A stretch of DNA of 55,252 nucleotides from an uncultured Candidatus Saccharibacteria bacterium (GCA_964626415.1 CAZVFH010000003.1:1-55252); one strand, 5' to 3'. Positions 1-49,443 are shown, counted from the stretch's first letter. Notes: generated by a model not told the origin, from the sequence alone. Numbers and translations are program-made.

Positions 1-106
1 AAGCCGCCCGCAGAATTGGTAAAGATATCAATTTTGGCGATTTGTCTGTCGTTTTTTTGTTGCAATTATTCTTTATAATCATTCCACAAAGTGCTAATAT
101 CAAAGT

Positions 107-3008: not shown

Positions 3009-3212
3009 ATGTCCGAAACACACGCTCAACATTTTCCCCACATAATTGTTGGCAATTCAGATTCATTGGATACTTTGACTAAGCGAGCCAAACACATTTT
3101 GAATGAACCCTCAAGAACTATTCTAAATGAATGCGGTGCTGTTGTTGTGAGAGTGTTGGTGACCTCCGCACAAGAAAAAGTAGTTGAAGAATGTGGTTTT
3201 CAGGTCATGTGA
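3009..3212 (+). CDS. hypothetical small protein (67 aa)
   Basis: Strong SD (AAAGGGGGA) 5-6 nt before the ATG. A hairpin with a T7 run follows the stop. No recognisable motif. Confidence 0.55.
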   Translation: MSETHAQHFPHIIVGNSDSLDTLTKRAKHILNEPSRTILNECGAVVVRVLVTSAQEKVVEECGFQVM

Positions 3213-3296: not shown

Positions 3297-4250
3297 ATGA
3301 TTAGATTATTTTACGGTGAAGATCAGTTTTCGCTTCAGGAAGAACTAAAAAATATTGAGCGGGAGTTTTATAACTCTAATTTTGGCGATATTAATATCTC
3401 GAAGTTTGATGGCGAAAATTTAACTTATGATCAGCTTCTACGAAATGCGGCGGCTATTCCGTTTCTTGCTGATCGTCGATTGATTATCGTCAAAAACTTA
3501 ATTCGAGTTGGCAGTGATAAACTAAAAGAGTATTTGGCGGAAAATTTGCAAAAATTTCCCGATTGCGCCGAGATTATTTTTGCTGAAGATGGCGAAGTTA
3601 AAAAAAATTTGATTATCTACAAAAAAATCCAGAAAATTGGTGAAGTGAAAGCGTTTCCAGTTCGCAAGGGTTATGAACTGGAAAAGTGGCTTATGGATTT
3701 TTGTCAAAAAGAAAATATTCCAATCAAATTTCCAGCAGTAAAAAAATTGATTTTGTTGGTTGGTGGTGAGTCATTTCGCTTACAAAATGAGCTTTCGAAG
3801 CTTGATCTTTTCCGCAAAGCGCAAGGGAAGGAGTTTATAGACGAGACGGATATCGAAATGATGGTCGCCGGTGAGAACGATCCGAACATTTTTGATTTTA
3901 TCGACGCTCTGGGAGCGAGAAATTCAAAGTCGGCTTTTGCCCATCTGTTTTCCCTTTTTGAGAGCGGAAAAAATGAAAATTATATTTTGACGATGATTGT
4001 CTATCAATTCCGCAATATGTTAATCGTTGCCGATCTGATTTCTCGCGGGGTTAGCAAACAAAATATCGCCAGCGAAGCCGGAATTCATCCATTTGTCGCC
4101 GGAAAAACCGTTAATTTGGTCTCAAATTACGAGTTGCCATTATTGAAAAGAATTTATCAGCGCCTTTTGCGATCTGATCTTGACATCAAAACCGGAGCAG
4201 TTGAGCCGCGACTGGCTCTCGAAAAACTTTTAGCCGATCTGACTTTGTAG
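3297..4250 (+). CDS. holA: DNA polymerase III delta subunit
   Basis: Length and the N-terminus MIRLFYGEDQFSL..., together with the overall helical three-domain pattern, are typical of HolA. ATG at 3297 is preferred to the ORF-track start at 3273. Confidence 0.7.
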   Translation: MIRLFYGEDQFSLQEELKNIEREFYNSNFGDINISKFDGENLTYDQLLRNAAAIPFLADRRLIIVKNLIRVGSDKLKEYLAENLQKFPDCAEIIFAEDGEVKKNLIIYKKIQKIGEVKAFPVRKGYELEKWLMDFCQKENIPIKFPAVKKLILLVGGESFRLQNELSKLDLFRKAQGKEFIDETDIEMMVAGENDPNIFDFIDALGARNSKSAFAHLFSLFESGKNENYILTMIVYQFRNMLIVADLISRGVSKQNIASEAGIHPFVAGKTVNLVSNYELPLLKRIYQRLLRSDLDIKTGAVEPRLALEKLLADLTL

Positions 4251-4260
4251 TATAATATAG

Positions 4261-4370
4261 ATAATTTAAAATTTAAAATTTAAAGTTCAAAATTTTGGTA
4301 TCCGCCTTTGGCGGATGAGCTATAATAGTTATTCCATAATTTTGATTTTTGATTTTTGCATTTTGAATTA
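4261..4370 (+). repeat. AT-rich hairpin element H1 with a central GC mini-hairpin and a CTATAATAG core
   Basis: The A-rich periodic left arm (AATTTAAAATTTAAAATTTAAAG) pairs with the U/G-rich right arm (AATTTTGATTTTTGATTTTTGCATTTTGAA) using U:G wobbles. The centre is ATCCGCCtttGGCGGAT followed by CTATAATAGTTATTCCATAATTTTG. Paralogous copies lie at 5871-5977 and 19801-19906. Confidence 0.8.
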
Positions 4371-4385
4371 TTTTTGGGAGGGGTT

Positions 4386-5870
4386 TTGGAGAAAAAGTAT
4401 CAAAAACCACCAATCATCGGGCTTAATTGGCGAAAGCTGATATTTTTCAGCTGTCTTTTTGTTGCTTTTTTCTCTGCTTGGAAGATCGTGGAATACAATC
4501 AGTTTCTTGCCGACGAAGCAACAGACGCCGAATCAAATTATCTTTTTACCTCTGTGGTAAATCTTGAGGTTACAAAAGATGGCAAAATTTTCAGTAATGG
4601 CAAAAAAATTGCTGGTAGCGTTAAACCTCAAAAGGAATTTGACGAATTGCGTCTTGTTGTTTATGACCAAAATGGAACATATCTTGATAATTTGCAAATT
4701 CAGCTTTCTTTGCCATCGGCAGTTGCGGGCAAAACAAAATCAGAAATTCTGGCAATCCACGGTGTTGATTCATCAACTTCATCGGTTTATGGCGACAATG
4801 TCTTGCTCTATGAAGCCAGTGGCGTCAGCGCCGTCGCAACGATTACCATAGTGGCAAAATTGCCAAAAGGCGAAATTAATTTCTCCTTTATTGATCAACT
4901 AGTTTATTATTTTTCGACTTTCTCCGGCACAATTTGGCTTTCATTGGCGGTATTTTTGCCGTTGGTTGTCTTTGTCTATTTAATTATTCTTATCTTGCTT
5001 CAAAGAAAGGCCCAAACAATTCCTAGTGTTGAGCGCCAATTCGTTTCTCCGCCATCGGCTCTGCCACCGGCTGTCGTTGGAGTTCTTACCCATCAAGATA
5101 TTGGGGCAAGAGAGATTGCGGCAACTTTGGTTGATTTATCTCTTCGAAAATTGATTTTTATAATTGATAAAGATCGAGGATTTGCTTTTGGCAAAAGGGA
5201 CTTTACTCAACAAATTTTACCTTTTGAGAAAATTTTACTCTCAAAGATATTTAGGAATGAGATTGTTTCAAGAGAAGAGATGATAAAGGAGAGATTTTAT
5301 GACCATCTTTACAGCAAAAAGATGTCGCTCTTTACAGGAGAGACATATTCAATTGCGACGCGATTTGGATATTTTAAAGTTAACCCCAAATCGATGCGTC
5401 GCAAATATCAATTTTTTGGGACGATTTTCTTTTTCTTTGCTCTCTTGTGTTTCTTTCTAAGTTTGAAATATTTTCCAACTTTGCATTATGCTTCTTTTCT
5501 TTGGGTTGGAATGATGGTTTCATCGGCTGTCATTATTATTGTTGGTTCAAAAATTCCGATTAGAACTCCACTTGGTCGCCAAGCACTTGGTAACTGGCTG
5601 GCATTTCGAGCTTATCTTTCCGACCATCGACCTTTGCCACTGGACCAACAGAACTACGATAAATTTGTGGAATATCTTCCTTATGCAATTGTTTTTAATT
5701 GTGAAGCGTTGTGGGTGAGGCGTTTTTCGTTTCAGAAATTTGCTATTCCGGAGTGGTTTCTGACCGACAAAGAGGGAATTGGGCTTGATGATTTTTGTTT
5801 AGCGCTTTTCCCAATAATCGGTTATGTCGGCCAAAATTTAGCAACGATCAGAGAACCGGGATATAAATAG
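4386..5870 (+). CDS. polytopic membrane protein, DUF2207-like
   Basis: N-terminal TM segment, a large extracytoplasmic region, then several TM segments and a PPAVVGVL..D.GAREIAATLVDL segment reminiscent of DUF2207. The likely start is TTG 4386, preceded by GGGAGGGG. Confidence 0.5.
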   Translation: MEKKYQKPPIIGLNWRKLIFFSCLFVAFFSAWKIVEYNQFLADEATDAESNYLFTSVVNLEVTKDGKIFSNGKKIAGSVKPQKEFDELRLVVYDQNGTYLDNLQIQLSLPSAVAGKTKSEILAIHGVDSSTSSVYGDNVLLYEASGVSAVATITIVAKLPKGEINFSFIDQLVYYFSTFSGTIWLSLAVFLPLVVFVYLIILILLQRKAQTIPSVERQFVSPPSALPPAVVGVLTHQDIGAREIAATLVDLSLRKLIFIIDKDRGFAFGKRDFTQQILPFEKILLSKIFRNEIVSREEMIKERFYDHLYSKKMSLFTGETYSIATRFGYFKVNPKSMRRKYQFFGTIFFFFALLCFFLSLKYFPTLHYASFLWVGMMVSSAVIIIVGSKIPIRTPLGRQALGNWLAFRAYLSDHRPLPLDQQNYDKFVEYLPYAIVFNCEALWVRRFSFQKFAIPEWFLTDKEGIGLDDFCLALFPIIGYVGQNLATIREPGYK

Positions 5871-5977
5871 GAAATTTAAAATTTAAAATTTAAAAATCAA
5901 AATTATTGTGTCCCGACAAGTCGGGACGGACTATTATAGTAATTCCATAATTTTGAACTTTGAATTTTGCATTTTAA
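5871..5977 (+). repeat. AT-rich hairpin element H2 (same family as H1)
   Basis: Arms are AAATTTAAAATTTAAAATTTAAAAATCAAAATT and AATTTTGAACTTTGAATTTTGCATTTT. The centre is GTCCCGACaaGTCGGGAC followed by ACTATTATAGTAATTCCATAATTTTG. Confidence 0.8.
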
Positions 5978-5985
5978 GCTTTGCT

Positions 5986-7036: not shown

Positions 7037-7111
7037 AGTTCGCTTCGCTCAAATTTAAAATTTAAAGTTTAAAATTCAAAATTGTGGAATAATTTTCTTA
7101 ATACATCTGAA

Positions 7112-10417: not shown

Positions 10418-10473
10418 CCAGGATAATCTTTGACGCCGAATTAACGCTGATATTTAATATTATTAAAGACGGT

Positions 10474-10578
10474 TGATAGTGGAAGGTAGAAGCTGGATTT
10501 TGAAGATGGAAGTTGGAAGATGGATTATCTAATTTCTAACTTCTATCGTCAAATTCTATTTTCAATTTTCTACTATCT
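10474..10578 (+). other. long imperfect RNA hairpin in the rpsO-pnp intergenic region
   Basis: The purine-rich left arm (GATAGTGGAAGGTAGAAGCTGGATTTTGAAGATGGAAGTTGGAAGATGGA) pairs with the pyrimidine-rich right arm (TAATTTCTAACTTCTATCGTCAAATTCTATTTTCAATTTTCTACTATC). About 10 of the pairs are G:U, so pairing works only in the + strand RNA. Confidence 0.7.
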
Positions 10579-10604
10579 AATGTCTAATTCCAAAGGGATT
10601 TTTT

Positions 10605-14985: not shown

Positions 14986-14989
14986 GAAA

Positions 14990-15105
14990 TTTTCAATTTT
15001 ATAATTTCCAATGAATTTTCAATGTATTAATTTCCAAACTTTCAATCATTGAAAATTGAATTATTGATTGTAAATTGAAAATTGCAAAATTAAAAATTAA
15101 TTATT
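14990..15105 (+). other. imperfect low-complexity hairpin (TTTCAAT / ATTGAAA units), ung-rnj intergenic region
   Basis: Centre is TTTCAATcATTGAAA at about 15047. Both arms are built from the same 7-10-nt units in opposite orientation, with roughly 70% pairing. Confidence 0.55.
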
Positions 15106-15135
15106 GTACTCTTAATACAGAAAGGAGATTTTATT

Positions 15136-17546: not shown

Positions 17547-19799
17547 TTGAGGGGACTTTTCGGAGGTAATGTGGGGCGAAAACGAAAATATCCAAAACAC
17601 AAGCAAAGAAGTCCAAAGTGGTTCCAGCGTGAAAACGAATGGGGTGATTATGTTTTTGACTGGACACTTGGGCTTGGTCCGGACACATGGCGAGAGATTT
17701 TTGGCATAATTTTTATGGTTGTCGCCGTTGTTCTCTTTCTTGGAATTTTCGGTTCTGCTGGTCGACTTGGTGAAAAGTTGCGACTTTTGGACTATAAATT
17801 TTTAGGTATGGTTGCCGGCTATATTTTGCCATTGGCGATTTTTTGGCTCGGAGCGATAATTTTATTTCCGCCAAAAGGCGGCGTTAGAGTAATTAAATTT
17901 TTCGGTATAGCTTTATTTTTTCTTTTTGTACCGGCAATGTTTCATCTTTTTATTCCGGAAGTTGACGCCAAGGGCGCCAGCGAAAACGGTGATGGCGGCG
18001 GAGTTGTTGGCTATTTGGTCTCGAACGCTTTTCGTCAAGCGATCGGGACATTTCCATCATTTTTAGTCACTTTTGTTTTGTCTTTTGTTTCAATAATGAT
18101 GGTTTTTGATCTTTCAATATCCAGTATTCTTGGTCGAAAGCCAATTAAAGATTTAGAAAAAATTGACGACGGCAAAGTCAAAATTCATCGCGGGGGCAGA
18201 GAAGAAGAACTTCCCGAAAGACCAAAAGGTGGGTTTTTTGCTGGGATTAGGAATCGCCTTAATTTTTTTCCGTTCAAACCAAGAATTACCGAGGACTTGC
18301 GAGCGCCAGTAATTGAAACGACTCCACTTCCTTCAACAAAAATTTCCTCTGGCCGGGTTTGGCAATTTCCAACACTTGATCTTTTGGTTGAATCAAATGA
18401 TGTTGCCAAGTCGGGCGATATTGGAAAGAATGTTGAAACGATAAAAAAATGTTTTTCTACCTTTGGAATCGAAGTAAAGATGCAAGATGTTAATGTCGGG
18501 CCGACGGTTACCCAGTACACATTGCGGCCAAACGAAGGAGTCAAGCTAAATCAAATTACCGCCCGTAATACTGATATTGCCTTGGCACTGGCGGCAAAAA
18601 GTTTGCGAATCGAGGCGCCGATCCCGGGGAAAAGTGCCGTTGGTATTGAAGTGCCAAATGTTGTCGCGGCAAAAGTGACATTAAAAGAGGTGATGATTTC
18701 CTCTCAATTTAAGACCCAAAAAAGCAAATTAGCAATTGCCTTAGGTCGTGATGTCGCCGGCACAGCAGTTGCGATTGACCTTGAATCAATGCCGCATTTG
18801 ATGGTGGCCGGTGCCACTGGTTCAGGAAAAAGCGTTTGTATCAACTCAATAATTTCGGCTTTTCTTTTTAACAATTCTCCGGAAGACATGCGCCTTCTTT
18901 TAATCGATCCAAAAAGAGTCGAGTTGACAAATTATAATGGCATCCCGCACTTGCTTTCTCCTGTTGTAATTGATGTTGATAAAACCATCTCAACATTAAA
19001 GTGGACGGTCTATGAGATGGAGAGGCGCTACAAAATTTTCTCTGATTCAGGAAAAAGAAATATTGCATCTTACAATGAGTTACCGGGACCCGAAGGTAAA
19101 TTGCCGTATATCGTTGTGATTATTGATGAGCTTGCTGATCTGATGGCGGTTTCGGCAAATGAAGTAGAGGCATCAATTGTTCGAATCGCTCAAATGGCCA
19201 GGGCAACCGGAATTCATTTAATTGTCGCAACACAACGTCCTTCGGTTGATGTCCTTACCGGTTTAATCAAAGCAAACATTACTTCGCGAATTGCCTTTGC
19301 AACTGCTTCAAATGTTGATTCGCGAACAATTCTTGATATGTCGGGAGCCGAGAAACTTTTAGGAAATGGTGATATGTTGTTTATCGGCAACGGGCTTTCG
19401 AAACCGAGGCGTATTCAGGGCTGTTTTGTTTCTGATAAAGAAATCAATTCTTTGGTTGGCTTTTTGAAAAATCAGGGAGAGGCGGAGTATGACGAGTCAA
19501 TTCTCTCCTTTCGTCCGGCAAAATTAGCCGGCAGCCATGGCGGAGGGTCAGTTGATGATGATTTATACGATGAAGCAATTCAAGTCGTTATGAACTCCGG
19601 ACAGGCATCGGCGTCGCTACTGCAGCGCCGGCTCCGCGTCGGCTACGCCCGAGCGGCCCGTCTTTTGGATATAATGGAAGAGGCCGGCGTAATTGGTCCA
19701 TCAAACGGCGCCAAACCGAGAGATATTTTGATGAATACTGATCAGCAGTTTGGCTCTGATAATGAAAACCAACATTTTTCAAAGGATGACAGGCATTAA
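17547..19799 (+). CDS. ftsK: DNA translocase FtsK/SpoIIIE
   Basis: N-terminal TM segments. Walker A motif GATGSGKS. C-terminal winged-helix gamma domain (ASASLLQRRLRVGYARAARLLD). The start is uncertain (TTG 17547 or GTG 17571). Confidence 0.9.
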   Translation: MRGLFGGNVGRKRKYPKHKQRSPKWFQRENEWGDYVFDWTLGLGPDTWREIFGIIFMVVAVVLFLGIFGSAGRLGEKLRLLDYKFLGMVAGYILPLAIFWLGAIILFPPKGGVRVIKFFGIALFFLFVPAMFHLFIPEVDAKGASENGDGGGVVGYLVSNAFRQAIGTFPSFLVTFVLSFVSIMMVFDLSISSILGRKPIKDLEKIDDGKVKIHRGGREEELPERPKGGFFAGIRNRLNFFPFKPRITEDLRAPVIETTPLPSTKISSGRVWQFPTLDLLVESNDVAKSGDIGKNVETIKKCFSTFGIEVKMQDVNVGPTVTQYTLRPNEGVKLNQITARNTDIALALAAKSLRIEAPIPGKSAVGIEVPNVVAAKVTLKEVMISSQFKTQKSKLAIALGRDVAGTAVAIDLESMPHLMVAGATGSGKSVCINSIISAFLFNNSPEDMRLLLIDPKRVELTNYNGIPHLLSPVVIDVDKTISTLKWTVYEMERRYKIFSDSGKRNIASYNELPGPEGKLPYIVVIIDELADLMAVSANEVEASIVRIAQMARATGIHLIVATQRPSVDVLTGLIKANITSRIAFATASNVDSRTILDMSGAEKLLGNGDMLFIGNGLSKPRRIQGCFVSDKEINSLVGFLKNQGEAEYDESILSFRPAKLAGSHGGGSVDDDLYDEAIQVVMNSGQASASLLQRRLRVGYARAARLLDIMEEAGVIGPSNGAKPRDILMNTDQQFGSDNENQHFSKDDRH

Positions 19800-19800
19800 T

Positions 19801-19906
19801 AATTAAGAGTTCAGAATTAAGATCTCAAAATTATGGTATCCCGACTAGTCGGGAGTAACTATAATAGTCATTCCATAATTTTGCATTTTGATTTTTGCAT
19901 TTTAAA
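19801..19906 (+). repeat. AT-rich hairpin element H5 (same family as H1/H2)
   Basis: CAAAATTATGG ... CCATAATTTTG is a perfect 11-bp inner stem. The centre is TCCCGACtaGTCGGGA followed by ACTATAATAGTCATTCCATAATTTTG. Confidence 0.8.
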
Positions 19907-19914
19907 TTTTTTAT

Positions 19915-20610: not shown

Positions 20611-20621
20611 ACTGACAAATA

Positions 20622-20764
20622 TGGAAGTAAAAACTACCACAGATCTATTGTCACTAATAAACACTGATAATTCTATCAGAGACAATCCGTGACGATAGAT
20701 CAGTGAGAGTTTATAATTCACTGTTCGATTCGTAATTTCGTTTTAATTAGTAATTTCGTAGGGG
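20622..20764 (+). repeat. CACWGAT-heptamer promoter/leader module, copy B (upstream of recA)
   Basis: Begins TGGAAGTAAAAACTACCACAGATC and runs through GATCAGTGAGAGTTTATAATTC, followed by the shared leader TTCGTAATTTCG...TTCGTAGGGG. Confidence 0.85.
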
Positions 20765-20780
20765 AACTGGGAGGAGTTTT

Positions 20781-21815
20781 ATGGTAAAAAAAGATGCCGG
20801 AAAAGAAAACACAAACAAAAATGACTCTATTAAAAAAGCTAAGTCCGAGGCGCTTGATGTTGCGCTGGCTTCGATAGAAAAGCAGTTTGGCAAGGGTTCG
20901 ATTATGAAATATGGTGCCGACACAAAATTAGATGTGGCGGTTATTCCAACCGGTTCGTTTGCGCTTGATTTAGCGCTTGGCGTCGGCGGTTTGCCACGCG
21001 GCAGAGTTGTTGAAATATATGGACCGGAATCATCAGGCAAAACAACTTTGGCAATTTCGGTTGCGGCGCAGGCGCAAAAACTTGGAGGTATTGCGGCTTT
21101 TATTGATGCCGAGCATGCTTTTGATCCGGAATATGCCAAAAAAATCGGCATAAATCTTGATGATCTATTGATGTCCCAGCCGGATACCGGTGAGCAGGCA
21201 TTGGAAATTTGCGAAACACTGGTCCGCTCAAATGCTGTTGATGTCGTTATTATTGATTCAGTTGCCGCTCTTGTTCCTCGGGCTGAAATTGAGGGTGAAA
21301 TGGGTGACTCAATGATGGGAGTCCAGGCGCGACTAATGTCGCAGGCGCTTCGAAAACTAACCGCTGTTATTTCCAAATCAAAAACAATGGTGATCTTTAT
21401 CAACCAGATTCGAATGAAAATTGGCGTAATGTTTGGAAATCCGGAAACGACAACCGGCGGTAACGCTTTGAAATTTTATGCTTCAGTCCGTTTGGAAATC
21501 CGTCGCAAAGCAACATTAAAACGCGGCGAGGAAAATGTTGGTAATCATGTCGGGGTTAAAGTTGTTAAAAATAAAGTTGCGTCGCCGTTTAAGACCGCCG
21601 AATTTGATATTATGTTTGGGATTGGAATTGATGCCGAAGGTGAAATTATTGATCTCGGCGTCGCGCAGGAAGTAATCGAAAAAGCTGGCGCTTGGCTTTC
21701 GTACAACGCTGAAAAAATCGGCCAGGGCAAAGAAGGTGCAAGAGCATTTCTAAAAGAAAATCCCAAAATCGCCGAAGAGATTAAGGCAAAAATTGTTGAG
21801 AAAATGAAAGAATAA
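20781..21815 (+). CDS. recA: recombinase RecA
   Basis: Walker A motif GPESSGKTT. Canonical RecA sequence throughout. GGGAGGAG SD upstream. Confidence 0.97.
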
Positions 21816-23988: not shown

Positions 23989-23989
23989 T

Positions 23990-24105
23990 GGAGGGATTTT
24001 AGGGGAGGTAAAGGGGAAGGATAAGGACAAGGGAAAAGGGGAAATTAGGGGAGCTTAAGGGGATCGTTCTAACTCTGAAACCCTTAACATCCCCTAAATT
24101 CCCTT
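23990..24105 (+). other. G-tract-rich purine run ending in an imperfect 25-bp hairpin, directly upstream of recX
   Basis: At least 6 GGGG/GGG tracts between 23990 and 24063. AAGGGGAAATTAGGGGAGCTTAAGGGG pairs with CCCTTAACATCCCCTAAATTCCCTT. Confidence 0.6.
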
Positions 24106-24113
24106 AAACAAAA

Positions 24114-24560: not shown

Positions 24561-24690
24561 TACAATAAAGATAAATCAAAAATCAAAATTCAAAAATCAA
24601 AATGATTGTAAAATTCAAAATTCCAAACCATTTTTCATTTTGAATTGTAATTTTGATCTTTGCAATTTGCATTTTGAATTTTCTAGGAGG
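24561..24690 (+). other. imperfect low-complexity hairpin (AAATCAAAA / TTTTGAATT units), recX-ppsA intergenic region
   Basis: The A-rich left arm (AAATCAAAAATCAAAATTCAAAAATCAAAATG) faces the U/G-rich right arm (CATTTTGAATTGTAATTTTGATCTTTGCAATTTGCATTTTGAATTTT). Confidence 0.55.
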
Positions 24691-24694
24691 GGTT

Positions 24695-27025
24695 ATGTTA
24701 AAGAAAAAAACGCCAAAGTTTATTCTCTGGTTTAAAGATGTTGGCAAAGATGATATTGCGTGTGTTGGTGGCAAGGGTGCTAATCTTGGCGAACTTGTCA
24801 GGGCTGGTTTTCCAGTTCCAAACGGCTTCATTGTTACTGCCGACGCTTATTTTTATTTTCTTTTAAAAAGCGGCATCGGTCCGGCGATTTCAAAAGTCCT
24901 GAAAAATTTTGATCCTGAGGATTCAAAAAAGCTAAATTCGTTATCAAAAATTATCAAAAAACAAATTCTTGCGGCAAAAATTCCGAAAGAAATCGAGGAT
25001 CAAGTTCTTGCGAGCTATAAAGAACTCGGCGATGTTCTTGTTGCCGTTCGTTCTTCTGCTACTGCCGAAGATCTGCCGGAGGCGTCATTTGCCGGTCAAC
25101 AGGCGACATATCTAAATATTTCTGGTGGCAAAGAAGTCGTCGAAGCATTAAAGAAATGTTACGCCTCGCTTTTTGAAGCGCGAGCAATTTATTATCGAGC
25201 GACAAATAAATATGATCAGATGAAAGTCGGGCTTGCGGTCCCAATTCAGATGATGGTCCAATCGGAGAAATCCGGCGTAATGTTCACTGTTGATCCGGTC
25301 TCTGGTGATACCGAGAAGTTAATAATTGATGCCGGTTATGGTCTTGGCGAAGCAGTTGTTTCCGGTTCAATTACGCCAGATCGCTACATAATTGAAAAAT
25401 CATCTTTGAAAATTGTCGCAAAAGAGATAAATGAGCAGGAGTGGAAGATTGTCAAAAGCAACTCCGGCGGCGACCGCCATGTTTCAGTTCCGCAAGCGGA
25501 CAGAAAAGACCAAAAACTTTCCGACGCTGAAATTATTGATCTGGCAAAGATTGGCACAAAAATTGAACAACATTATAACTCACCGCAAGATATTGAGTTT
25601 GCGATTGAAAAGGGGAAAATTTATATCGTTCAGTCGAGACCGATCACAACTTTAAAAAATCAAAAATCAAAAATCAAAAATCAAAATGAAGGAACCGAAA
25701 CTATTGAAGAAGACAAGGCAGAAGTTTTGTTACGTGGGGCGGCGGCTTCGATGGGAATGGCAAGGGGACCAGTGAAAGTGATTCATTCTTATGAACAAAT
25801 TGATGAGGTCAAAGATGGTGATGTGCTTGTAACTGAAATGACAACGCCGGATTTTGTTCCGGCGATGAAAAGAGCGGTGGCGATTGTCACTGATACTGGC
25901 GGGAGAACTTGTCATGCAGCGATCGTCAGTCGAGAAATGGGAATTGCTTGCGTCGTTGGCACCGGCACGGCGACATCAAAATTAAAAACTGGTCAAGTTG
26001 TTACCGTTGACGGAGTGAAAGGTCTTGTTTATAAAGGGGCAATAAAAATAGATGGTGGGGGGTCGAAAGTGGGTGTTGGAGTAGAAAGGTCAGTCGGGGC
26101 AGTATTATCAGAGGAGATTCCGATTACCGGCACCAAGGTTTATTTAAATCTTGCTGAACCGGATTCTGCGGAAGAAGCGGCAAAACTCCCAGTCGACGGT
26201 GTCGGATTGCTTCGTGCCGAATTTATTATCGCCGAAATTGGCGAGCATCCAAGAGCGATGATTGCCGATGGCCGTGGCGCCGAGTTTACGGAAAAATTAT
26301 CACAAGGAATCGGCAAAATCGCCGGCGCCTTTTCGCCACGACCGGTAATTTACCGAGCAACCGATTTTAAAACCAACGAATACAAAAACTTAAAAGGCGG
26401 AGAAAAATACGAGGGTGAAGAAGGAAATCCAATGATTGGAATGCGCGGTGCACTGCGCTACATCACCGATCCTGAGGTTTTTAATCTTGAGCTTGAAGCG
26501 ATAAAGGTTGTCCGCAATAAAATGGATTTAACCAATTTACATTTGATGATTCCATTTATTCGCACAGTAGACGAAATGCGTAAAGTTATCGAGCTGGTTT
26601 CTGCTGCCGGATTAAGTCGTGGTCCAGATTTTAAGATTTGGATGATGGTTGAAGTGCCGTCTAATGTTATCCTTCTAGAGAAATTTCTTGATCTTGGGAT
26701 TGATGGTGTTTCGCTTGGAACAAACGATCTAACACAATTAACTTTGGGCGTTGATCGCGACAATCAAAATTTGGCCAAGGTTTTCGACGAGCGTGATGAA
26801 GCAGTCGAGCTCTCGGTTTCCTATGTCGTCAAAACCTGTAGAAAGCGGGGAGTCACCTCATCTGTTTGCGGTCAAGCTCCAAGCATTTTTCCTGAGTTTA
26901 CCGAACTAATGGTAAAAAACGGTGCGACTTCCGTTTCCGTTACCCCCGATGTTGCGATAAAAACAAGAAAAATTATCGCATCAGTTGAAAAACGGCTTCT
27001 TTTGCAGAACATTGTTAACCGATAA
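24695..27025 (+). CDS. ppsA: phosphoenolpyruvate synthase (pyruvate, water dikinase)
   Basis: Motif VGGKGANLGEL and the phosphohistidine motif GGRTCHAAIVSREMGI, with a C-terminal PEP-utilising TIM barrel. GGAGGGG SD before the ATG at 24695. Confidence 0.9.
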   Translation: MLKKKTPKFILWFKDVGKDDIACVGGKGANLGELVRAGFPVPNGFIVTADAYFYFLLKSGIGPAISKVLKNFDPEDSKKLNSLSKIIKKQILAAKIPKEIEDQVLASYKELGDVLVAVRSSATAEDLPEASFAGQQATYLNISGGKEVVEALKKCYASLFEARAIYYRATNKYDQMKVGLAVPIQMMVQSEKSGVMFTVDPVSGDTEKLIIDAGYGLGEAVVSGSITPDRYIIEKSSLKIVAKEINEQEWKIVKSNSGGDRHVSVPQADRKDQKLSDAEIIDLAKIGTKIEQHYNSPQDIEFAIEKGKIYIVQSRPITTLKNQKSKIKNQNEGTETIEEDKAEVLLRGAAASMGMARGPVKVIHSYEQIDEVKDGDVLVTEMTTPDFVPAMKRAVAIVTDTGGRTCHAAIVSREMGIACVVGTGTATSKLKTGQVVTVDGVKGLVYKGAIKIDGGGSKVGVGVERSVGAVLSEEIPITGTKVYLNLAEPDSAEEAAKLPVDGVGLLRAEFIIAEIGEHPRAMIADGRGAEFTEKLSQGIGKIAGAFSPRPVIYRATDFKTNEYKNLKGGEKYEGEEGNPMIGMRGALRYITDPEVFNLELEAIKVVRNKMDLTNLHLMIPFIRTVDEMRKVIELVSAAGLSRGPDFKIWMMVEVPSNVILLEKFLDLGIDGVSLGTNDLTQLTLGVDRDNQNLAKVFDERDEAVELSVSYVVKTCRKRGVTSSVCGQAPSIFPEFTELMVKNGATSVSVTPDVAIKTRKIIASVEKRLLLQNIVNR

Positions 27026-47652: not shown

Positions 47653-49443
47653 ATGAATGAAGTTGAGGAAGTGAAAAATAAAATTGATATCGTCGAACTG
47701 ATCGGCGGATATTTGTCGTTAAAAAAAGCCGGTGTTAATTACAAAGCGCTTTGTCCCTTTCACACGGAAAAAACGCCGTCGTTTATGGTTTCGCCTGAAA
47801 GGCAAAGTTTTCGCTGTTTTGGTTGCAATAAGGGTGGCGATATTTATACTTTTATTGAAGAAATCGAGGGAATGGAATTTTTTGATGCTTTGAAATTGCT
47901 TGCCGGAAAAGCCGGAGTTGAACTGAAAAAAAGACAAAATTTTTCCTACGGCGAAAAAGAAATTAAGCCGACAGAGAAAACCCGACTTTTTGAAATAAAT
48001 GATCTGGCGGCAAAATTGTATCATAAAATTTTACTTGATCATCCGAAAGCCGAAGGCGCGAGAAATTATTTAAAAAAACGGGGAGTCAAAAAAGAAACAA
48101 TAATAAACTGGAATCTCGGCTATGCGCCGAAAATGTGGGATTTACTTTCTAAATTTCTTGGCAAAAAGGGTTATTCGGAAAAAGAAATTTTCAAAGCCGG
48201 GCTTTTGGTTTTGGGTGAGTCGGGCAAATACTGGGATCGTTTTCGCGGCCGGATTATGTTTCCAATTTGCAATATTTCCGGTCAAGTTATTGCTTTTACT
48301 GGTAGGGTTTTGGACGATTCCGACCTGCCTGCCGGCAGGCAGGTCCAAAAAGCGGCGAAGTATGTCAATTCATCAGAATCGCCGATTTACACCAAAGGAA
48401 AAACGATTTATGGCCTCGATCGGGCGCGTTTGGATATTCGAGCGCAAAATCGTTCGGTTTTAGTCGAGGGTAATATAGATGTCATTGCTTGCCACACGGC
48501 CGGTTTTAAAAATGTTGTCGCTGTTTCTGGCACGGCTTTAACTTCGGAGCAATTAAAAATTCTCGCCCGCTATTCACCGGAGGTGATTTTGATTTTTGAT
48601 TCTGATAATGCCGGCATCGTGGCGATGAAACGAGCAATATCTTTGGCTTTGCAAAACGATTTATCTCCAAAGGTGACGACATTTCTTGGCTTTAAAGATC
48701 CAGATGAAGCAATAAAAGCCGATCCGAAAAATTTCGAGCGAGCGATCAAAGATGCAAAGCCAGCGCTAACTTACTGGATCGATTCTTTGATCTTGGAAAA
48801 TGATATTCTTGCGCCAGATGGGCGAAAAAAAATTTCAAGGGAGATTCTGCCGGTTTTAAAGATTATTTCCGATGAAATCGAAAAGGACTATTATATAAAA
48901 TATCTGGCAAAAAAATTGTCGGTTTCCGAGTCGGTTGTTAAAGAACAGATTAAAAAAACGAAGTCGCAAATTGGCGATCAAAATTATGCGTCAAATTCGG
49001 AAGTGAAGAAAAGTCAGAATCAAATAGAAAATTCAAGCGAAAGAATCTTTCAAAAAATTGCCGGGATTGTTTGGCAGTCGCCAGAGCTTGTGAGTATTTT
49101 GCCAAAAGAGATATTTTCTGAAAATTTTTCCGATAAAATGTTAAGTGATTTTTTTGCTTACATTAAAGAAAAAAAAGAAAAGAACTTACTTTCATCTGAA
49201 CTTCGGGCAAAGCTGGACAGTTGGTCGCTCCTGGCAACTGCTGATCTTGAACAAAGTGAAGAACAGATTTTAAAAAAAGAACTTCAGTCACTTGTAAAAA
49301 CATATTTGGAGGGGAAGAAAGAAGCAATAAAATCAGAATATGCCCAAAAAATTGCTGAAGCTGAATCAAGCGGTGATCGGGAAAAATTAAAATCATTGTT
49401 AAAAGAGTTTCAGAATGCTATCATTAATAATGAATTGAAGTAA
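47653..49443 (+). CDS. dnaG: DNA primase
   Basis: Zinc-binding motif CPFHTEKTPSFMV...CFGCNKGGD. TOPRIM motifs (EGNIDVIA, DSDNAG). Contains an in-frame 24-nt perfect palindrome. The last codons and the stop lie inside repeat copy C. Confidence 0.92.
   Translation: MNEVEEVKNKIDIVELIGGYLSLKKAGVNYKALCPFHTEKTPSFMVSPERQSFRCFGCNKGGDIYTFIEEIEGMEFFDALKLLAGKAGVELKKRQNFSYGEKEIKPTEKTRLFEINDLAAKLYHKILLDHPKAEGARNYLKKRGVKKETIINWNLGYAPKMWDLLSKFLGKKGYSEKEIFKAGLLVLGESGKYWDRFRGRIMFPICNISGQVIAFTGRVLDDSDLPAGRQVQKAAKYVNSSESPIYTKGKTIYGLDRARLDIRAQNRSVLVEGNIDVIACHTAGFKNVVAVSGTALTSEQLKILARYSPEVILIFDSDNAGIVAMKRAISLALQNDLSPKVTTFLGFKDPDEAIKADPKNFERAIKDAKPALTYWIDSLILENDILAPDGRKKISREILPVLKIISDEIEKDYYIKYLAKKLSVSESVVKEQIKKTKSQIGDQNYASNSEVKKSQNQIENSSERIFQKIAGIVWQSPELVSILPKEIFSENFSDKMLSDFFAYIKEKKEKNLLSSELRAKLDSWSLLATADLEQSEEQILKKELQSLVKTYLEGKKEAIKSEYAQKIAEAESSGDREKLKSLLKEFQNAIINNELK

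Follow-up and report, generated by a model that had tools for sequence, protein, structure and literature searches.

Copies of a dispersed palindromic repeat at gene junctions, in protein genes and in the 23S rRNA gene of a Berkelbacteria genome

Three gene junctions and a genome-wide repeat family

The window (here, the whole stretch of 55,252 nt that was analyzed) is contig C3 of an assembly (G000) of 0.86 Mb in 67 contigs, with a G+C content of 38.6%, which protein homologues place, by the names of their source organisms, in Berkelbacteria. It contains three spacers between co-directional genes that consist of the same parts in the same order, with each copy occupying the entire spacer: between holA and a DUF2207 gene (copy 1), between the DUF2207 gene and lepB (copy 2), and between ftsK and a rodZ-like gene (copy 3; Table 1). 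Each copy starts with an A-rich arm of ~7-nt units, followed by a short GC hairpin, a core, and finally a U/G-rich arm that is complementary to the first. The GC hairpin differs in sequence among the three copies, with its pairing always kept, and a 26-nt core string is common to all of them. The core reads (A/G)CTAT(A/T)ATAGT-N-ATTCCATAATTTTG, with TATAAT inside.

This shared architecture had been described in the original prediction, which was made from the window alone, and it is present in all three spacers, as is the TATAAT hexamer within the core. The core itself had been given as ACTATWATAGT, but copy 1 starts with a G in place of the A. Copies 1 and 3 are followed by runs of U4 to U6. 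The starts called by the ORF caller at 4356 and 5908 fall within the element and are artefacts; the real starts were placed by alignment with homologues (Table 1). Upstream of copy 1, TAGTATAAT at 4248-4256 overlaps the holA stop and is conserved in G000, G001, G002 and G009 (as TGATACAAT in G010). This sequence may serve the DUF2207 gene as a conserved −10 box, in which case copy 1 would lie wholly in the 5′ UTR.

Table 1. Coordinates of the three full copies with their parts and flanks, and of related features elsewhere in the window (E, covariance-model E-value)
Feature	Position	Strand	Remarks
Copy 1, full	4259-4374	+	holA to DUF2207-gene spacer; E = 1.2e-22
Copy 1, A-rich arm	4261-4301
Copy 1, GC hairpin	4300-4316		aTCCGCCtttGGCGGAt
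Copy 1, core	4319-4329		gCTATAATAGt
Copy 1, TATAAT	4321-4326
Copy 1, U/G arm	4331-4371
SD downstream of copy 1	4376-4383		GGGAGGGG
Real start downstream of copy 1	4386		TTG; homologue alignment
Stop at copy 2	5868-5870		TAG
Copy 2, full	5869-5985	+	DUF2207-gene to lepB spacer; E = 5e-21
Copy 2, first arm	5871-5906
Copy 2, GC hairpin	5910-5927		GTCCCGACaaGTCGGGAC
Copy 2, core	5930-5940		ACTATTATAGT
Copy 2, second arm	5942-5977
Real lepB start	5986		ATG, no SD; homologue alignment
Stop at copy 3	19797-19799		TAA
Copy 3, full	19797-19913	+	ftsK to rodZ-like spacer; E = 2.6e-20
Copy 3, GC hairpin	19839-19854		TCCCGACtaGTCGGGA
Copy 3, core	19858-19868		ACTATAATAGT
Copy 3, arm after the core	19870-19910
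Start downstream of copy 3	19915		ATG
TATAAT-C-ATTCCACAA upstream of 5′-nuclease gene	74-89	+	right-arm inner end without heptad array
Solo right-arm (leader-type) copy, rpsT 5′ region	7051-7094	-	downstream of TTTACA-17-TACAAT promoter-like site
Related hairpin with the same heptad words	24568-24684	+	recX to PEP synthase spacer; no GC hairpin or core; E = 2e-5 to 3e-4
A-rich heptad array in PEP synthase gene	25656-25690	+	in frame; encodes LKNQKSKIKNQNEGTE, interdomain linker

A genome-wide census, which the original prediction had proposed, was carried out with a covariance model (CM) built from ten copies from the genome itself. The model returns the three spacer copies at E = 1e-20 to 1e-22 and finds ~27 loci in the genome at E < 1e-3, 11 of which have the core. 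The other loci include a second subfamily, with the centre ...AATGACAAT...ACATTGTCATT... and without GC hairpin or TATAAT. Elements measure 105-130 bp, and their arms change in length by whole heptads. Conservation peaks in the palindromic centre, (G)AACTATAATAGTT, with ATGGTAT and ATTCCAT on either side; for a transposon, such a pattern is unusual. Termini of the form ATAATTYAAAA...TTTTGAATTAT recur in many copies and are absent from copies 2 and 3. At the gathering score, Rfam models match a single tRNA in the window, and only rRNA and tRNA at the other element loci. All public species genomes were also scanned for ACTATWATAGT-N1-3-TCCANNNTTTT; with 69 single matches scattered over unrelated taxa, the outcome was set aside as being at chance level. 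The relatives use a 4-nt gap.

Arm-only HMMs (nhmmer) find 81 strand-specific instances of the T-rich arm in the genome, 27 of which lie directly against the start of a gene or tRNA in the same orientation. Among these 27 are ten solo right arms, which keep a distance of 3-17 nt to the start in spacers as long as 86-597 nt. The closeness to start codons is partly overstated, since the arms have stops in all frames and the ORF caller takes the first start after a stop. Another 20 abut the end of a gene on the opposite strand, corresponding to an A-rich left arm after the stop of that gene (seven are solo), and 17 lie within long ORFs. The A-rich arm precedes the T-rich arm in 22 close pairs, with no pair in reverse order. 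The earlier suggestion that the right arm recurs as a start-proximal leader is thus borne out by its position. Outside rRNA, 12 of 13 scorable core-bearing copies face the gene or tRNA that lies downstream of them, the sole exception being a copy before the 5S rRNA in G004. The string ATTCCAYAA, which had been reported after a TATAAT upstream of the 5′-nuclease gene and in the rpsT leader, is found in both places (ATTCCACAA at 74-89; ATTCCACAATTTTG at 7077-7090, minus strand). It was rejected as a general post-promoter motif, because nearly every intergenic occurrence is the inner end of the element's right arm.

The genome contains several other families of small palindromes. Palindromes of the form CCTGCC(TGCC)GGCAGG(CAGG) occur at ~12 loci (e.g. 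window 48324-48343), in some cases nested in A-rich arms and in one case within an ORF, and a repeat of ~60 nt or more (GTCATCCCGAAyTTrTTTCGGGATCTCAG...) has ~19 copies. Long hairpins at 10418-10604, 14986-15135 and 23989-24113 of the window have the design of the family in unique sequences with words of their own (GGAAG/CTTCT, TTTCAAT/ATTGAAA and GGGGA/TCCCC). At two loci of the genome (C14, ~3011-3037; C5, ~20866-20900), fragments of 25-35 nt that resemble the 5′ part of another tRNA (acceptor and D arm) lie between a right arm and the real tRNA-Arg gene, which suggests that the element was copied along with a piece of a neighboring tRNA gene.

Copies in 23S rRNA, in proteins and in related genomes

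The assembly has only one 23S rRNA gene (contig C39, minus strand), which contains two full copies, one in each orientation (Rfam). The sense copy (C39:2775-2886) lies between positions 583 and 584 of the LSU model, atop an extra GC-rich stem, as placed by the Rfam LSU alignment. From the flanking ACAAGAAGUC...GGCGUGCCUUUUGUA, we take this insertion point to be the tip of helix 25, which is the classical site of 23S intervening sequences (IVSs) excised by RNase III. The antisense copy (C39:852-965) forms part of a 170-nt insertion in domain IV, close to model position 1892. For rRNA genes of the CPR, a survey found many short, ORF-less insertions at known IVS sites of 23S genes and suggested that these are intervening sequences (PMC11270868). 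Among relatives of the same taxonomic family, the helix-25 tip is short or empty in three genomes (G007, G008 and G009) and a little longer in G003, while G005 and G010 have other AT-word hairpins of ~150 nt there. In the G010 insert, the same centre is present without a GC hairpin, as GGAATAACTATAATAGTTAATACC. The 23S gene on C39:1-3543 matches the Rfam model only to position 2044 and aligns poorly around model positions 700-940. It has at least three AT-rich hairpin insertions (including C39:2479-2572), and its 3′ third is either absent from the assembly or located beyond a large insertion.

Copies in coding regions mostly consist of the A-rich arm array only, which is translated into K/N/Q/S-rich peptides. 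At least 10 ORFs of 327-911 aa contain such an array in frame (with peptides such as KNQKSKIKNQNDNSK), and one near-complete palindrome lies in an ORF on C19.

Orthologues of the DUF2207 gene (~60% identity) are present in 11 of 11 other genomes of the taxonomic family, and none of these 11 has the element at either of the two junctions of this gene. In G001, a member of genus g2, the junctions measure 22 nt (lepB spacer) and ~45 nt, with normal SDs and without hairpins; no copy of the element family was found in this genus. The lepB gene downstream of copy 2 has no SD, whereas its G001 orthologue has a GGAG SD in the 22-nt spacer, and the right arm is therefore the predicted translation-initiation region of lepB. 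Other relatives have different hairpins in place of the element: long AT-rich ones made of other words at the junctions of G002, G009 and G010 (such as CTAAAT/TTTAGA, AATGACGAA/TTCGTCATT and AAATCCAAA/TTTGGATTT), and a different one at the first junction in genus g3.

Closer relatives are available as metagenome contigs. In an 89%-identical sibling (Logan contig), the first junction has a TTAGAAAT-type hairpin, then a GC hairpin and an SD, as in G002; copy 1 is therefore seen as a derived replacement in the genome studied here. The second junction of this sibling has the beginning of its left arm in common with copy 2, and upstream of its rodZ a variant T-rich arm abuts the same ATG as copy 3. 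Contigs of the 89% sibling and of a 79% sibling end within repeats, leaving neither a clean empty site nor a target duplication to be read, and a metagenome scan with the DUF2207 protein returned only relatives at ~60% identity. Spacer content turns over between species of ~80-90% protein identity. Downstream of rodZ, for instance, the sibling has a hairpin of GTAAGT/ACTTAT words (L146:731-815); the genome itself has a CACWGAT repeat at 20611-20780, upstream of recA.

The element family as such was found in 8 of the 11 other genomes of the taxonomic family, with 3-65 matches on the two strands together. Among genera, copy number varies from 0 to >30; G004 has up to ~30 copies, and its most abundant subfamily is without the core. 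At non-orthologous loci in other genera, the same composite is found, including its GC-hairpin subtypes (TCCGCC, CCCGAC, GGCAC and GAGCA). These copies sit before an SD and start, before or between tRNAs, and before 5S rRNA. Other families of the order have the composite as well, and the spacer at C20:5937-6054, which is orthologous to a locus in G006, holds different subfamilies in the two genomes. Judged by this distribution, the repeat family is specific to one Berkelbacteria order and most abundant in the window's own taxonomic family.

These comparisons show that copies arrive by insertion or replacement, because orthologous sites are empty or differently filled. Moreover, the same composite is found at non-orthologous loci, and copy-and-paste therefore fits, while local growth does not. 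The comparison with related genomes, which had also been proposed at the outset, showed the same architecture across the order, at non-orthologous sites. A signal dedicated to these particular gene pairs is contradicted by copies in 23S rRNA (in both orientations) and in proteins, and by orthologous spacers that are empty or contain other hairpins.

Pairing, expression signals and mobility

An inverted-repeat search returns arms of 41 nt in copy 1 and 31 nt in copy 2, which are 78-84% complementary. As sense RNA, copies 1, 2 and 3 fold at -37.2, -32.2 and -27.7 kcal/mol (z = -7.5, -5.9 and -4.1 against dinucleotide shuffles), with 0 of 200 shuffles folding equally well; the antisense values are -20.8, -27.8 and -22.3 kcal/mol (z = -4.0, -5.2 and -3.5). 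A consensus structure from ten copies of the genome has 33 pairs, arranged in 5-bp blocks with 2-nt bulges between them, which corresponds to the heptad period. Across these ten copies, 93% of the consensus cells are paired, as compared with 33-57% when the partner is slid, and compensatory changes occur at three of the four GC-hairpin pairs. Arm cells include 26 G:U and 4 A:C combinations, in agreement with the earlier claim that the arms pair with the help of U:G pairs.

The original prediction further held that the fold is specific to the sense strand, and proposed folding of both strands as a check. In 18 loci for which the downstream gene defines the sense strand, the sense fold is on average 3.2 kcal/mol more stable than the antisense one, with 12 loci favoring sense and 6 the opposite strand (t-test p = 0.04, Wilcoxon p = 0.054; given the relatedness of the copies, these are not independent observations). 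At the same loci, sense exceeds antisense by 2.1 G:U pairs (p = 0.012). A mutational G-over-C bias was rejected as the cause of this excess: four-fold sites of the sense strand have C > G (skew -0.11), and mutation bias therefore does not explain the sense bias. The bias is real but modest, carried mainly by some loci and above all by copy 1. The sense strand thus folds better on average, as predicted, but the effect is strong only in copy 1 and is reversed at one-third of the loci.

A σ70 consensus scan of the window left copies 1 and 3 uncalled, with no −35 box at 16-18 nt from TATAAT, and copy 2 has only a weak CCGACA-16-TATAGT match (5913-5940). An intrinsic-terminator scan of the window likewise called none of the three copies. 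Canonical TTGACA-16/17-TATAAT promoters and terminators with a GC stem and T-run were called elsewhere in the window. The full copies were therefore rejected as σ70 promoters or intrinsic terminators. A coupling of termination to re-initiation, one of the roles first suggested, is without support, given that the full copies have neither a −35 nor a called terminator. The core is at best a predicted −10-only promoter, and promoter activity does not extend to the family as a whole, because the −35 is missing and the G004 subfamily has no core. In full copies, ~25 nt lie between the GC hairpin and the U-rich arm. After tRNA-Glu (C25:1222-1279), a left arm, GC hairpin and T-run form a canonical terminator. 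The genome encodes RNase III (C1:50322-50972, 233 bits); both RNase III processing of the elements and promoter or leader activity are plausible.

How the copies move was addressed from their flanks and from candidate transposases. In the flanks of ~12 copies, no target-site duplication is definable, as a possible TA per end is indistinguishable from the AT-rich arm, and at the empty sites the divergence (60% protein identity) is too great for the element boundaries to be placed. No left-arm/right-arm pair enclosing an ORF, as expected of an autonomous partner, was found in the genome itself. The possible terminal TA prompted consideration of an IS630/Tc1-type partner, which was rejected, since none of the 12 genomes has an IS630-type DDE_3 transposase above the cut-off. 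A sub-threshold DDE_3-like match (18 bits) in a 190-aa ORF at C5:22184-22471, ~1.3 kb from an element and tRNA cluster, may be a transposase remnant. The sole Y1_Tnp ORF (RAYT-like, with HUH motif; C33:6670-7272, minus strand) is flanked on both sides by CAAGCTAAAGCTTGGACTCC hairpin arrays, part of the flank being N. Together, these look like a REP/RAYT system in a CPR genome. RAYT was rejected as the mobilizer of the element, because the RAYT-like gene carries its own, different, short GC-rich REPs. With short, non-coding, dispersed copies, terminal inverted repeats, and presence or absence at orthologous sites, the element resembles MITEs. The strict MITE label cannot be applied, because neither a target duplication nor a cognate transposase (DDE_3 and Y1_Tnp were searched) was found.

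Explanations, significance and known systems

We lean slightly towards reading the three spacers as copies of a non-coding, dispersed, insertion-type palindromic repeat, with a hairpin that is possibly cut by RNase III and a centre and right arm that form a possible leader. A transcribed copy would fold into a bulged hairpin of ~40 bp, slightly better on the sense strand, which the resident RNase III would probably cut. Such a cut would release the 23S copy as an intervening sequence and, at gene junctions, divide polycistronic mRNAs into segments. The centre and right arm could in addition supply a −10 box and an SD-less, U-rich leader right before the start codon, and for this reason selection would retain gene-facing copies and keep right halves alone as leaders. 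The dedicated, strand-specific operon signal of the original prediction is only partly right.

The regular position of the arms could also point to a regulatory module built by the host, in which the left arm is the 3′ end of the upstream gene, and the core and right arm are a standard promoter and leader. The arms would then pair only in read-through RNA, insulating or punctuating operons, and the module would spread by recombination since it is useful, and not through mobility of its own. Solo arms fit this well, with right ones at gene starts and left ones after gene ends, as do the canonical terminator made of left arm, GC hairpin and T-run on C25, the orientation of 12 of 13 copies, the excess of G:U over A:C, and the conservation of the TATAAT-bearing centre across the families of the order. 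We nevertheless consider it fairly unlikely. Copies in 23S helices (in both orientations) and in coding regions need no promoter or leader, genus g2 has the same junctions without elements, the G004 subfamily has no core, no −35 is present, and copy number differs from 0 to >30 among genera. Hairpins might instead have grown in situ from a small hairpin (a terminator or an rRNA helix tip) by heptad slippage and templated arm correction, with likeness between loci arising by convergence or gene conversion. Many spacers and the helix-25 tip of G005 indeed have idiosyncratic hairpins of unique words, arms differ in length by entire heptads, GC hairpins of these types are also found alone, and sibling arms differ by heptad-level changes. 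However, this is distinctly improbable, as termini, inner arms, core and GC-hairpin subtypes recur at non-orthologous loci across genera and families.

Two simpler explanations fare worse. The constant polarity of A-rich arm, hairpin and U-rich arm (22 vs 0), the U4 to U6 after copies 1 and 3, and the canonical left-arm copy would be expected of unusual intrinsic, possibly bidirectional, terminators with extended A and U tracts. Such an identity is very improbable: the GC hairpin and the U-rich arm are ~25 nt of core apart, the long stem has only A-U pairs at its base, the three copies went uncalled while canonical terminators were called in the same window, and copies also lie in rRNA and before tRNAs within clusters. 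Chance resemblance between low-complexity spacers, for which the G+C content of 38.6% and the AT-rich spacers would provide the raw material, has a negligible probability in view of CM E-values of ~1e-20 or lower per copy, the absence of equally good folds among 200 shuffles, and the 26-nt core string that the copies have in common.

The insertion-type repeat can also be cast in a more ambitious form, which we regard as plainly unlikely: a self-spreading ‘insulated expression cassette’, consisting of a −10 box and SD-less leader with a left arm that acts as anti-leader. In read-through RNA, the leader would be sequestered and cut by RNase III, whereas RNA started internally would be translatable. 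Insertion would thereby turn a junction into an independently promoted gene, and the same family would be the source of the 23S IVSs of the lineage. If true, this would be a direct link from mobile intergenic palindromes to rRNA fragmentation.

CPR genomes are tiny and compact, and to our knowledge almost nothing is known of their promoters, leaders, mRNA processing and mobile DNA. Here, a single repeat family underlies operon junctions, gene and tRNA leaders, low-complexity protein inserts and two 23S insertions. If the hairpins are RNase III substrates, this one family would join operon segmentation and rRNA intervening sequences, and would suggest an origin for the short, ORF-less rRNA insertions across the CPR. 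On a practical level, the repeats break assemblies and create false upstream starts (such as 4356 and 5908), and they should be masked before regulatory motifs are inferred.

Several known systems resemble the dispersed repeat described here. Phage T7 early mRNA has intercistronic RNase III sites, which are unique, conserved and non-repeated. Like these, the hairpins here are bulged and lie exactly at polycistronic gene junctions (the ‘operon punctuation’ of the original prediction), but they are dispensable repeats. REP/BIME (REPIN)-RAYT and ERIC elements are also transcribed intergenic hairpins inside operons with a possible effect on mRNA stability, and one Y1/RAYT-like protein is encoded in the genome. 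The elements here, however, are three times longer, AT-rich and composite, and the RAYT-like gene is adjoined by another REP. Correia elements (CREE/NEMIS) of Neisseria are likewise dispersed palindromic repeats of ~100-150 bp, mostly located immediately upstream of genes. They carry σ70-like promoter sequences, and their co-transcribed inverted repeats form a hairpin that is cut by RNase III (PMC10969869), a likeness that on our side is predicted only. The two have no sequence relationship. Correia elements have fixed 26-bp terminal repeats, whereas the arms here are variable heptad arrays, the centre rather than the ends is best conserved, a TA duplication is not readable in the AT-rich ends, and further copies lie in rRNA or in frame in proteins. 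The latter is a feature of Rickettsia palindromic elements, which are palindromic repeats of a reduced genome that lie both between genes and in frame in unrelated protein genes (PMC10969869). Their sequence is unrelated, and here it is mostly one arm that is found in coding regions.

Finally, 23S IVSs (helix 25/45; Salmonella, Leptospira, Coxiella and CPR) share with the sense 23S copy a long stem-loop in place of the helix-25 tip and a sporadic distribution among relatives, and the genome here has a single rRNA operon, a reduced size and an RNase III gene. Unlike these IVSs, the insert belongs to a genome-wide repeat family that is otherwise found between protein genes, and a second copy lies antisense in domain IV. 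Unusual features of the element are arms made of heptad arrays, a nested and exchangeable GC hairpin, a conserved palindromic centre, and an rRNA IVS that belongs to an intergenic repeat family.
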